Origin: Candidatus Shapirobacteria bacterium
GTDB lineage: Bacteria > Patescibacteriota > Microgenomatia > UBA12405
Length of the DNA stretch: 64,000 bases
Reading direction: 5' to 3'
Assembly: GCA_028704635.1 (NCBI GenBank)
Contig: JAQWFB010000001.1
Location: forward strand, 69,541-133,540
Shown here: positions 26,110 to 28,282 of the stretch, one piece after another
Numbering within the stretch: the first letter of the stretch is position 1
Layout: every line of letters begins with the position of its first letter
Made by a program: the position numbers and the translations under genes
The notes under the pieces: model-generated
Database searches by the model: none
What the model was told of the DNA's origin: nothing
Seen by the model: the letters and a program-made list of their open reading frames with translations, nothing else

Positions 26110-27158
26110 ATGCCCATATATGATGAAATAATTAGTTACGAAAATCTCCTCAAGGCTTATTTTCAAACCAGAAAATGTCGTCGATCCAAACCAAATTTCC
26201 AAAAAATGGAAATGAATTATGAAAGCATTTTGTCAGATCTCCAATGGAAATTAAAAAATCAGCTTTATTATCCTAAATCCTACACTAAATTCCTGGTTTT
26301 TGAACCAAAAAAACGACAAGTCGCTGCACCCCATTGTCATGATCGAATTGTTCATCATGCCATTATCAATATCATTGAACCCTTAACCGAAAATTTTTTT
26401 ATTCATAATTCTTATGCTTGCCAAAAATCAAAAGGCGGATTTAAAGCGAGATCAGAAATAGCCGAAGTTTATCGGCAAATGTATAAACAAACTCCCATAT
26501 TTTACGCCCTAAAATGTGACATTAAGTCATATTTTGCCAGCATTAATCATCAAGTTTTATTAACCCTTCTTAAGAAATTTATCAGCTGTGAAAAAACCAT
26601 AAGGCTGCTTCAAAAAATAATTAATTCCTATTCCGAAACCCCAGGTACCGGTATTCCCATTGGCAACTTAACCAGTCAATTGTTTGCCAATCTGTATCTC
26701 CATCCCCTCGACATTTTTGTCACTCAAATGGTTGGTGAAAAAAATTATTTTCGCTATATGGATGACTTTTTGATTCTTTCTCCTGACAAAGAATATCTTC
26801 TCAATCTAAGAATTTTAATGAAGGGATTTTTAAAATACTATTTAAAATTAAATTATCACCCCAAGAAAAATAATATCTTTAGAGCTGATAAAGGCGTTGA
26901 ATTTGTCGGCTATCTTATCAAACCTGACTCAATTACTATGCGTAAAAAAACTATTAGAAAATTTAAAAAAGACATAAAAAGAGGATTAAATTACTTAAAA
27001 AATTAATCATTGAGAATAAATTAGACGAGGCCGACATTTTAAAGAAAAAGTTACTAAGTTCTAAAAGTTCCCTACGTGGATTTTTAAAAGACACCAACTA
27101 TGAATCCAGAAATAATTTATTAAGAATTAATGGCATTATCATGCCGCCTGAACTCTAA
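26110..27158 (+). CDS. DGR reverse transcriptase; the C-terminal 50 aa are reached only after a -1 frameshift at the A_AAA_AAT run near 26993-27000 (first frame stops at 27006)
   Basis: IGNLTSQ (the DGR-specific replacement of QGxxxSP), catalytic YMDD in FRYMDDFLIL, and motif A D in KCDIKSYFASINH. Shifted-frame tail is IIENKLDEADILKKKLLSSKSSLRGFLKDTNYESRNNLLRINGIIMPPEL. Confidence 0.85.
27138..27154 (+). repeat. 17-bp direct repeat atcatgccgcctgaact, copy 1 (overlaps RT 3' end)
   Basis: Identical to 28266-28282. GC-rich in an AT-rich genome. Encodes ..IMPPEL* of the RT. Confidence 0.8.
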
Positions 27159-27187
27159 TAAACCATCAATAGACAACATTTCAACCC

Positions 27188-27216
27188 TTGACAATCGTCT
27201 AATATTCGTCTATTAT
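27188..27216 (+). promoter_or_regulatory. sigma70-like promoter for fic (TTGACA-17-TATTAT), probably leaderless
   Basis: TTGACA at 27188-27193, 17-nt spacer, TATTAT at 27211-27216, ATG at 27224. Confidence 0.4.
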
Positions 27217-27223
27217 TAGTCTA

Positions 27224-28252
27224 ATGTTTAATCCAAAATATACTATCACCGATCAGTTATTAGCCAATATTACCAAAATTAATGCTTTGATTAGAGATCT
27301 TAATGATCGTCGTTTTCCTAAAGTAATTTTAGTGGAATTTGAAAAAAAGGCTAGAGAAATTTCTGCTCATGCTTCAACTAGTATCGAAGGCAATCCTTTA
27401 CCCTTGACTGATGTTAAAAGAATTCTAAAATTAAAACCAGCAAATATTCGAGACACTGAAAAAGAAGTTTTAAATTATAATCAAGCTCTTGAATCACTAA
27501 ATAAACTTTTAGAAACAGATGAATTAGAGATATCTTTAAAATTAATCTTAGATATTCATAAACAAATAACTGATGGTCTTTTACCTGCATTTGATTCAGG
27601 CAAACTTCGAACCAGACCAGTAGTGGTCAATGATCCAAGAACAAGAAAAGTTGTCTATTTACCTCCAGATGTAGAAAAAGTTAAAAGTCTCATTGATGAT
27701 TTGATCAATTATGTAAACGAATCAAAAAACAATATTGATCCTCTTATTCTTGCTGGTATTTTTCATAAACAAATGGTTATTATCCATCCATTTATGGATG
27801 GTAATGGTAGGACGACTCGATTGGCTACAAAAGTTTTATTAGCCAAAATGGGCTTAAACACCTTTAATTTATTTAGTTTTGAAAATTATTATAACCAAAA
27901 TGTTACCAAATATTTTCAAACAGTTGGAGAATATGGCGATTATTATGAATTAGTTGAATCCATTGATTTTACAAATTGGCTTGAATATTTTACTGGGGGA
28001 TTAATTGATGAATTGTTTAGAGTTCAAAAAATATTACCAGAAATTGGTAACACTCCAGAAACCAGATTAGAAACTTATCATCTTAAAATAATGGAATTTA
28101 TTAAGAAAAATGGCTTTATAAAAGATAATGATTATTCCAAGTTAACCGACAGAGCCAAAGCTACTCGTGCCTTGGATTTTCAAAAACTTCTCGATTTAGG
28201 ATTAATTCAACGTCAAGGAAAAGGTAAATCTACTTACTATCTTTTAAAATAA
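27224..28252 (+). CDS. Fic-family protein (AMPylase/Fido) with C-terminal winged-helix domain
   Basis: Canonical Fic motif HPFMDGNGRTTR. Confidence 0.9.
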   Translation: MFNPKYTITDQLLANITKINALIRDLNDRRFPKVILVEFEKKAREISAHASTSIEGNPLPLTDVKRILKLKPANIRDTEKEVLNYNQALESLNKLLETDELEISLKLILDIHKQITDGLLPAFDSGKLRTRPVVVNDPRTRKVVYLPPDVEKVKSLIDDLINYVNESKNNIDPLILAGIFHKQMVIIHPFMDGNGRTTRLATKVLLAKMGLNTFNLFSFENYYNQNVTKYFQTVGEYGDYYELVESIDFTNWLEYFTGGLIDELFRVQKILPEIGNTPETRLETYHLKIMEFIKKNGFIKDNDYSKLTDRAKATRALDFQKLLDLGLIQRQGKGKSTYYLLK

Positions 28253-28265
28253 ATTTTATAATTTC

Positions 28266-28282
28266 ATCATGCCGCCTGAACT
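28266..28282 (+). repeat. 17-bp direct repeat atcatgccgcctgaact, copy 2 (overlaps avd 3' end)
   Basis: Identical to 27138-27154. On the minus strand it encodes ..KVQAA* of avd. Confidence 0.8.

Follow-up and report, generated by a model that had tools for sequence, protein, structure and literature searches.

Diversity-generating retroelements (DGRs) of the kind known from Bordetella phage BPP-1 are abundant in the Candidate Phyla Radiation (Patescibacteria). In the canonical BPP-1 element the order is target-avd-TR-RT on one strand, where TR is the template repeat and RT the gene for the reverse transcriptase. A DGR was analysed in a stretch of 64,000 nucleotides (nt) from Candidatus Shapirobacteria bacterium (GenBank assembly GCA_028704635.1, contig JAQWFB010000001.1, positions 69,541 to 133,540 of the forward strand), hereafter the window, in which a gene encoding a Fic protein, designated Fic-A, is located between RT and avd. 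The locus shares with known DGRs an RT, an Avd protein, and a TR and variable repeat (VR) mismatched at adenines only, the VR being placed at the C-terminus of a CLec/FGE-type ligand-binding protein and varying between samples at TR adenines. It differs from them in that TR-RT and target-avd form two converging units that ancestrally overlapped at their 3' ends, and in that RT and avd enclose a predicted defence gene. The locus represents a DGR whose slot for defence cargo is reusable, and the explanation that we put forward with good, though not full, confidence is that a SoFic-like Fic unit was inserted in the duplicated RT/avd overlap that constitutes this slot.

SoFic, a single-gene anti-phage system made up of a Fic AMP-transferase with a C-terminal domain, is reported to be an abortive-infection AMPylase with a small antitoxin open reading frame (ORF), AS1, downstream of it (PMC12249575). 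Fic-A resembles SoFic in a profile match of near full length, in the presence of both Fic and inhibitory motifs, in a predicted Fic core followed by a C-terminal winged helix, and in fold matches to the structures 3eqx, 3zec and 3zcn (template-modelling score, TM, 0.60-0.63). It differs in being only 17-19% identical to solved SoFic, its core being closest to FICD by sequence; in that no ORF like AS1 is evident in the 13-nt gap before avd; and in that the Fic-A family is conserved at 65-93% in numerous Patescibacteria lineages, to a degree that defence genes seldom show.

AbiE is a nucleotidyl-transferase toxin with a winged-helix autoregulator. Type IV toxin-antitoxin or abortive-infection modules of this kind (AbiEi/AbiEii) occupy the RT/avd slot in three related DGRs (L087, L108 and L112; loci used for comparison are referred to by such numbers) and the gap between avd and target in two more (L109, L110), but they belong to another protein family, consist of two genes and are absent from the window. 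Target duplications that are long and of variable length are a feature of IS1634 of Mycoplasma mycoides, which encodes a transposase, and to our knowledge they are known only from elements of that type. Fic-A inserts have in common with them direct repeats of variable length (14-93 nt) and a discrete insert of ~1.1 kb, but lack a transposase, terminal inverted repeats and conserved ends beyond promoter and stop codon. The toxin-antitoxin cassettes of chromosomal integrons and small tRNA islets are, like Fic-A, small modules in recurrent slots, a likeness that extends to the duplicated tRNA-His tail of L105; unlike them, Fic-A sites have no integrase, no attC-like structure and no common core.

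The duplicated RT/avd overlap and its empty counterparts

The RT gene (26110..27157, plus strand; Pfam RVT_1, 6.3e-21) and avd (28267..28614, minus strand; 115 amino acids; Pfam bAvd, 2.8e-21, profile positions 1-106 of 107) point towards each other. The 17-mer ATCATGCCGCCTGAACT was found exactly twice in the window, at 27138-27154 and 28266-28282, both times on the plus strand, and its G+C content (53% against 32% for the window) agrees with its description as GC-rich in an earlier note on this DNA, which had reported both positions. No further copy with up to two mismatches was found elsewhere in the window, nor any match at the same tolerance in 100 dinucleotide-preserving shuffles of it. 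A repeat finder extended the 17-mer to 19 identical positions out of 20; mapped against the empty site of L113 (see below), the duplicated segment is 22 nt long (27138-27159 and 28266-28287, 21/22 identical), and outside these 22 nt the two copies have no residual similarity (about 5/12). Copy 1 (27138..27159, plus strand; 17 nt perfect) contains the final RT codons and the stop codon and is translated on the plus strand as ..INGIIMPPEL*. Copy 2 (28266..28287, plus strand) encodes on the minus strand K-V-Q-A-A-stop (..KVQAA*), the last residues of the 115-amino-acid Avd, as had been proposed. The corresponding proposal for copy 1 holds for the tail as such (..IMPPEL*), but the RT frame is broken in the window and the tail is read in another frame.

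The same RT-Fic-avd arrangement is present in six other independent assemblies (L001-L005 and L086; ENA, four from JGI, and NCBI). Five of them (L001-L005) are 100% identical to the window from 27000 through 28400, as is L086 up to its end at 27451; copy 1 is thus present in six of six assemblies and copy 2 in all five that reach it. A chance repeat or a chimera, for which nothing speaks beyond the general risk of metagenome assembly, has a negligible probability in view of junctions that are identical in the ENA, JGI and NCBI assemblies and of the 0/100 result with shuffled sequences; an artefact of assembly or chance is excluded, and the concern on this point expressed in the earlier note does not apply. 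When the 17-mer was sought with a tolerance of up to 3-4 mismatches in 104 related loci it was found in this lineage only, near matches in L064 and L042 being at chance level.

Homologous DGR loci were checked for an empty site with a single copy of the 17-mer, the comparison that the earlier note had recommended, and such a site is present in L113 (RT 83% identical to that of the window; Avd of 115 amino acids). There RT and avd converge and their ORFs overlap by 20 nt. The single copy, ATTATGCCGCCTGAACTTTAAT, is identical to the 17-mer at 16 of 17 positions (context ..AATGGTATTATTATGCCGCCTGAACTTTAATTGAACTTTGCCAAGC..), the overlap encodes ..IIMPPEL* on the plus strand and ..KVQAA* on the minus strand, and the 22 nt at 1212-1233 align to both window copies. 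That RT and avd were originally convergent with overlapping 3' ends, as suggested before, is borne out by this single 22-nt copy and the 20-nt overlap. The repeat in the window (20-22 nt) occupies almost the same stretch as the ORF overlap of 19-20 nt. The junction is also unoccupied in L088 (RT 75% identical, 14-nt overlap) and in L105-107 (RT 63%, 20-nt overlap), where Fic-A is located 1.2 kb upstream of RT; an RT/avd overlap of 38 nt is kept in L109 and L110 (RT 69%); and in ten DGRs at 43-58% RT identity the two genes are adjacent and convergent with no insert. From these empty sites it follows that the tight tail-to-tail arrangement of RT and avd is ancestral in this DGR family. Related loci do not always carry Fic at this position; had they done so with divergent flanks, this would have counted against the insertion.

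The reverse order of events, in which Fic between RT and avd is the older state and the single-copy sites of relatives arose by deletion between direct repeats, must be weighed against the same loci. Repeats of 22-52 nt favour precise deletion, and members of the close clade are mostly occupied; however, all ten distant DGRs with both genes have them tightly convergent, the occupied sites hold unrelated cargo with different junctions, and the normal home of Fic-A is elsewhere, for example beside tRNA-His in L105 and L114. We regard this order of events as quite improbable.

A terminator-like match on the minus strand (27132..27145), consisting of the hairpin GGCAT-GATA-ATGCC and a T-rich run, has only its 3' half inside the duplicated segment and is a possible former avd terminator, judged by its sequence. 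The GGCAT..ATGCC pairing is retained in L088 and L112 and is weaker in L113 and L105.

The Fic-A unit and its relatives

Fic-A (27224..28252, plus strand; 342 amino acids; Pfam Fic, 1.2e-19) is the only ORF of at least 60 amino acids within 27158-28265, one other listed ORF being an antisense frame of 58 amino acids. The near-consensus promoter TTGACA-17-TATTAT that had been noted before the gene was recovered in a promoter scan, in which its hexamers (27188-27216) match at 11 of 12 positions and rank first among the promoter-like sites of the region. Only 7 nt separate the -10 hexamer from the Fic ATG, and the Fic mRNA is probably leaderless. Three direct repeats with a spacing of 11 nt, ATCGTCTA (27194), TTCGTCTA (27205) and TTAGTCTA (27216), all on the plus strand, overlap the promoter and form with it a block at 27188..27223. 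Most of ~80 orthologous loci have the same promoter architecture, with three ATCGNCTA repeats at 11-nt spacing, and the variable base of these repeats often co-varies within a locus (CGTCTA in the window, CGACTA three times in L010, L060 and L065, and CGCCTA in L016 and L017). The three repeats are probably an operator for the winged helix of Fic-A itself. A G+C-rich stretch (for example CGAAGAGCGCTTGAAACGGCGGGCACAGT) was observed ~30-45 nt before the Fic ATG, downstream of the promoter repeats, in L020, L027, L028, L044, L047, L051, L055 and L067; in this subset of loci the Fic mRNA is not leaderless and may have a structured leader.

The inhibitory helix of class II Fic proteins carries the motif (S/T)xxxE(G/N). 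In Fic-A the corresponding residues are S51-T-S-I-E55-G56 (S-xxx-E-G), which align to TVAIEGN of FICD, and the Fic motif HPFMDGNGRTTR at residues 188-199 conforms to HxFx(D/E)GNGRxxR; both motifs are invariant in 35 homologues. The PADLOC SoFic model PDLC03963, for which there is no curated cut-off, matched with 1.6e-46, residues 47-340 aligning to profile positions 60-350 of 361. An AlphaFold model of Fic-A (predicted local distance difference test score, pLDDT, 78.6) has helices and a beta hairpin at residues 284-341. Full-length fold matches of this model were 4rgl, 8cil and SoFic (3eqx/3zec), and the C-terminal part alone matched the DNA-binding winged helices of AspA and MecI. All sequence and fold criteria of a SoFic-like Fic were found in Fic-A; as far as sequence and model indicate, it is a single-chain, auto-inhibited class II AMP-transferase module of SoFic-like type whose C-terminal domain is a winged helix, as opposed to the two-gene Fic toxins of the classical type. 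The earlier designation 'toxin-type' was imprecise as a term for a single-chain class II protein of the SoFic defence type with its own inhibitory motif and winged helix. It seems likely to us, with some reserve, that Fic-A is SoFic-type defence or addiction cargo with no role in the DGR.

Homologues of Fic-A number in the thousands, and the 120 best (73-93% identical) are from Patescibacteria, comprising Gottesman-, Davies-, Levy-, Roizman-, Shapiro-, Woese- and Pacebacteria. When genomes representing individual species were scanned, relatives (65-93% amino acid identity) were found in at least 383 Patescibacteria species, and 80 Fic-A loci from other species (L006-L085) were fetched. In none of these 80 is Fic-A located between RT and avd, and 78 of them lack an RT within about 6 kb. 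At the other species-level loci examined, orthologues preceded by the same promoter have ordinary chromosomal surroundings, and the closest relatives (92-93% amino acid identity) have non-DGR neighbourhoods, several beside tRNA-His. Homology to orthologues at the DNA level begins at ~27183-27188 (the -35 box) and ends at 28253-28256 (the stop codon). Both limits fall inside the repeats, so that non-homologous linkers remain, 22-28 nt long on the left side and 9-13 nt long on the right side. The left linker, from the repeat to the Fic promoter (27160..27187, plus strand), is not homologous to other Fic-A loci and contains ATCAATAG; the right linker runs from the Fic stop codon to copy 2 (28253..28265, plus strand). 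Because homology is confined to the DNA between the repeats and orthologues occupy ordinary chromosomal contexts, the Fic unit is by these sequence comparisons foreign to the DGR and came from elsewhere. The proposal that a ~1.1-kb Fic cassette was inserted with duplication is supported by the empty site in L113 and by the foreign unit and was essentially right; we hold insertion with duplication at the RT/avd site to be highly probable. That the duplication was made by the insertion of this Fic gene is a separate matter: the duplication is real, but may predate this Fic, since the slot also takes other cargo.

Neither a second Fic copy nor a tRNA-His 'home' site was found within the window. 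IMG/VR viral contigs contained no relative of Fic-A or of RT, and a phage or plasmid vector for Fic-A was rejected on this basis. Among the closest relatives of the window's Fic-A, a location beside tRNA-His was observed in L105 (2186-2315 and 3494-3554), in L114 (7097-7173) and, upstream of Fic, in L116. A direct repeat of 61-93 nt around Fic-A in L105 and L106 includes the last 8 nt of tRNA-His; in L116 and L114 there is only a CTGGGGTGG-like remnant, and L114 has two tRNA-His genes. Fic-A in L105, L114 and L116 resembles a minimal tRNA-linked islet without an integrase. L107 was considered as an empty tRNA-His site and rejected, the contig breaking inside the repeat.

Cargo of sister DGRs and repeats at other Fic-A loci

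The use of the slot was surveyed in DGRs with an RT 63-100% identical to that of the window. Apart from the window lineage with Fic-A, L099 carries in the RT/avd slot a different Fic (Fic-B, 26% identical, with a MarR-type winged helix), and L089 and L111 carry Fic-C (Fic_N and Fic domains) together with an inverted target-avd unit. AbiEi>AbiEii follows RT in L087 and L108, the pair is present in opposite orientation (AbiEii<AbiEi) between RT and avd in L112, and AbiE is located between avd and target in L109 and L110, while the slot is empty in L113 and L088. In PADLOC the three Fic genes (Fic-A, Fic-B and Fic-C) all match SoFic, and the AbiE genes match AbiEi/AbiEii. Six of the ten lineages with an RT at least 63% identical have a Fic or AbiE module within the DGR or directly next to it, and the RT/avd overlap is a recurrent slot for exchangeable defence cargo. 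In L112 a 52-nt direct repeat (47/52), derived from the 3' end of RT, stands on both sides of the cargo. Its avd-overlapping part is nearly perfect, and four of the five mismatches are in the fossil RT part (~87%); duplication of the junction is therefore either recurrent, or old and shared, and its length varies. No flanking duplications were found around AbiE of L109 and L110 or Fic-C of L089, and the flanks of Fic-B in L099 have only a weak remnant of ~11 nt, ACTTTRATYGA.

Some sister loci point to a different order of events at the slot, in which an earlier insertion duplicated the overlap and Fic-A later replaced the cargo by recombination. A non-coding spacer of ~150 nt after the RT stop codon is common to L087 (1385-1560), L099 (637-760) and L112 (1223-1262 and 2505-2590, split by the AbiE genes) beside different cargo, and ATCAATAG of the left linker in the window recurs at the spacer end of L087, just upstream of the cargo promoter. 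The longer duplication of L112 affects the same region with different cargo. In addition, the RT of L099 (1-636) is, on comparison of its parts, a mosaic produced by recombination inside the RT gene, 94% identical to the window over residues 140-282 and 62% over the last 52 residues, which match L087-L089; recombination within these DGR loci thus does occur. On the other hand, the similarity between the linker and the sister-DGR spacers amounts to the 8-mer plus a few bases, which is near chance for AT-rich DNA and too short to conclude from; the window copies are dissimilar immediately outside the 22 nt, whereas the fossil in L112 is still recognisable; and 17 perfect positions out of 17 suggest a young duplication. 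Such an exchange of cargo is conceivable but rather unlikely in our assessment.

Matches to Rfam families, sought in the window and in the post-RT spacers conserved among sister loci, were limited to tRNAs. The inversion of target-avd relative to TR-RT in some relatives (L089, L111) was observed along with divergent avd and target genes in L095 and L096; recombination between the 128-nt inverted TR and VR could flip the intervening segment.

The frequency of Fic and AbiE at these loci could also mean that they are functional partners of the DGR, which regulate or gate retrohoming or stabilise the element as an addiction module, with their position under selection. Apart from the six occupied lineages out of ten, both cargo types are nucleotidyl-transferase toxins with winged-helix regulators, and Fic-A is located within ~2 kb of a DGR RT in four of ~77 independent lineages (L006-L085 plus the window and L105), namely the window, L105, L083 and L012, which suggests a proximity above that expected from chance placement. 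Yet cargo type, orientation and position vary, AbiE of L109 and L110 being between avd and target; empty DGRs are common and include the entire 43-58% outgroup; 78 of the 80 fetched Fic-A loci have no RT nearby; and literature searches (DGR with Fic or toxin-antitoxin; Patescibacteria Fic) gave no relevant paper, none in the library searched linking DGRs with Fic or AbiE cargo. A functional partnership is accordingly thought improbable. In L083 (1-5009) and L012 (6001-8115) the RT within ~2 kb of Fic-A is an unrelated one of DGR type, that of L083 being 37% identical and accompanied by Avd.

Flanking repeats at other Fic-A loci were assessed by alignment of the 150 nt upstream of the Fic-A promoter with the 150 nt downstream of the stop codon in 76 independent loci. 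A score of at least 14 was obtained for 6/76 Fic-A loci and for 4/298 control genes in the same loci, one of the latter a transposase (Fisher p = 0.006, or 0.019 without this lineage), while mismatched upstream/downstream pairs (602 trials) gave a maximum score of 15 and a 99th percentile of 10. The repeats measured 63 nt in L041, 45 in L023, 25 in L084, 18 in L052, 17 in this lineage and 14 in L065. They consist of local sequence that is unrelated between sites, and in four cases they come as close as 5-28 nt to the -35 box and 2-17 nt to the stop codon. The Fic-A inserts are 1081-1108 nt in size, and no terminal inverted repeats were found in five of them (scores of 6-7, equal to the shuffle mean). 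Of the two copies in L084, the upstream one is genuine, being the 3' end of a gene of 395 amino acids (..LPGIEALK) which from its C-terminal sequence alone was read as phosphoglycerate kinase, and the downstream one is a fossil without use. In L065 it is the downstream copy that is genuine, as the 5' end of a GTPase gene (GIVGLPNVGKS). These two loci argue that the duplication is a by-product of insertion and does not come only from selection for intact genes.

In L024 (5898-9614) Fic-A and two 1236-bp units, identical to each other and encoding a HAD-like protein, are enclosed by a 64-nt repeat that stands at 7079, 8315 and 9551 and, in part, at 5898 next to a masked stretch. Its interpretation as a cassette array was rejected; the 1236-bp tandem duplication beside the masked stretch is an amplification or assembly effect and was not used as evidence.

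Proposed mode of insertion, DGR activity and genomic setting

The earlier note had offered as a second route that the cassette recombined in through this site, which would make the 17-mer the core of an att-like or attC-like site for the exchange of cassettes by site-specific recombination. A perfect direct repeat around a small insert is what such a site would leave, and Fic-A at the 3' end of tRNA-His in L105, with a repeat of 61 nt, looks like the footprint of an integrase-made island. However, neither the insert nor the adjoining DNA contains a recombinase gene, the 80 other Fic-A loci lack the 17-mer, and the repeats elsewhere are unrelated, 14-63 nt long and without terminal inverted repeats; this route is unsupported and we rate it as very improbable. 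An integrase-made island or integron cassette was rejected for want of a recombinase and on account of the unrelated flanking repeats and the restriction of the 17-mer to this Fic-A locus, and a transposon or insertion sequence was rejected in view of the missing transposase, inverted-repeat scores at the shuffle mean and duplication lengths of 14, 18, 22, 25, 45, 52, 61-93 and 63 nt.

According to the insertion that we favour, the ancestral TR-RT unit (plus strand) and target-avd unit (minus strand) converged with ORFs overlapping tail to tail by ~20 nt. A unit of ~1.1 kb with promoter and SoFic-like Fic gene would then have entered the overlap, which was duplicated in the process (22 nt, 17 perfect). 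By this duplication both ORFs keep their ends, copy 1 ending RT (..IMPPEL*) and copy 2 ending Avd (..KVQAA*), and both proteins are unchanged. The predicted auto-inhibited AMP-transferase would repress its own promoter via the C-terminal winged helix and act as an abortive-infection or addiction-type defence gene, not as part of DGR chemistry. The tail-to-tail junction of RT and avd would serve as a 'safe harbour' within a variable region rich in defence genes, where an insertion does no harm because it leaves all promoters intact, and would have been filled repeatedly by single-module defence cargo. The insertion would be duplicative without a fixed stagger, by capture at a staggered break or by replicative template switching, and the resulting direct repeats would permit precise loss, making it reversible. 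Variable repeat length, insertion in either orientation and the lack of a transposase, conserved ends or a common core speak against a classical transposase or integrase. As to the mechanism itself, the balance is even between transposase-independent template switching or break capture and an unseen enzyme acting in trans.

Several observations weigh against this account or parts of it. The enrichment of repeats at other Fic-A loci is moderately significant, and most Fic-A loci have none. The unit hardly varies in size and has tight ends, which tells against purely random insertion, so that a trans-acting enzyme remains a candidate. The agreement of the repeat with the 19-20-nt ORF overlap is not predicted by a random stagger and requires selection for intact ORFs or some other cause. 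Most members of the clade with 63-100% RT identity are occupied, and L113 and L088 could be revertants. The occurrence of ATCAATAG in both the window and the L087 spacer hints that the duplication stems from an earlier insertion and that Fic-A came in by exchange of cargo, and the closeness of Fic-A to a DGR RT in four of ~77 lineages leaves room for a functional link.

All features of a DGR that were tested for were found at the locus: adenine-specific TR/VR mismatches, an RT adjacent to the TR, Avd, a C-terminal VR and ongoing mutagenic retrohoming. The TR (25828..25955, plus strand) has a 128-nt inverted match to 28731-28858 (91%) and is followed 154 nt downstream by RT. The target gene (28731..31103, minus strand) encodes 790 amino acids with two Laminin_G_3 domains and an FGE-sulfatase/CLec-type C-terminus in Pfam (FGE-sulfatase 1.2e-5, 25.6 bits against a cut-off of 23.3), and the VR (28731-28858) forms the last 128 nt of this ORF. 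All 11 mismatches between TR and VR in the window are at TR adenines, which make up 31 of the 128 TR bases, and the same holds for 15/15 differences in L001, 9/9 in L004 and 11/12 in L002, where the exception is one G>C. The VRs differ among five assemblies (the window and L001-L004), whereas the TR and the rest of the locus are constant: between 26400 and 28900 all differences of the window from L001-L004 other than an indel at 26965 are within the VR, at 28758-28838. The TR is identical in L002, L003 and L103, and that of L086 differs at one position. Since the VRs vary between samples almost exclusively at TR adenines, the DGR works with the insert present and still diversifies its VR in the populations that carry it. 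The VR of L003 (2934-3061, a contig of an NCBI metagenome-assembled genome) was observed to have 24 differences from the TR, 10 of them non-adenine and mostly C>T or T>C, possibly through a mixed-population consensus or a different history. The comparison of assemblies was uninformative as to signs of a sweep across the insert, the whole DGR being identical between them except for the VR.

The frameshift in the RT of the window is due to a 1-nt deletion in an A7 run (A6 at 26965-26970), by which the ORF as written ends at 27006. The six other assemblies all have A7 and an intact RT of 349 amino acids; the A6 is either a homopolymer error or the mark of a recently inactivated RT. Just upstream of the TR, an ORF of 79 amino acids (25318-25557) matches only the last ~25 positions of DUF3800 and looks like the remnant of a gene.

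Beside the DGR target, at 31241-34230, there are three co-directional genes, encoding proteins of 337 amino acids, 76 amino acids (weak MC6 match) and 586 amino acids (DUF2326). The last of these (32470-34230), just beyond the target, matches the PADLOC candidate PDC-M68B with 2.5e-74, and the three genes are probably a conflict system of ABC-three-component type, which would place the DGR in a defence-rich region. Upstream of the DGR, at about 17450-23474, Pfam matches obtained on L002 reveal a cluster resembling type IV secretion systems, with a TrbC/type IV secretion pilin, a TraC-like protein, a VirB4-like DUF87/AAA_10 protein, an M23 peptidase and a PLD-like nuclease. The related DGR of L109 has a Replic_Relax gene and a resolvase at its flanks. 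To judge from such gene content, the DGR may be carried by an integrated mobile element.

The usual picture of a DGR is that of a compact cassette sufficient to itself. In the present family, the RT/avd junction of a working DGR accommodates defence cargo that can be exchanged, namely three different SoFic-like genes and AbiE in either orientation. Its empty, filled and differently filled relatives constitute a natural series in which it can be asked whether the cargo stabilises the DGR, regulates it or hitch-hikes on it. The locus also provides a clean footprint of a promoter-plus-gene unit that entered a very compact genome without damage to two overlapping genes. Only tentatively, and with more doubt than conviction, do we suggest that Patescibacteria move gene-sized defence modules, consisting of a promoter with a gene or gene pair (Fic-A, AbiE), by an undescribed duplicative process for which the DGR overlap is a preferred slot or landing pad. 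If this were true, the process would need no element-encoded transposase and no defined ends, would leave duplications of 14-93 nt and would be reversible. The recurrence of the footprint at unrelated sites around Fic-A, a gene unusually conserved in Patescibacteria, points to gene-sized mobility in genomes with few recognisable mobile elements.

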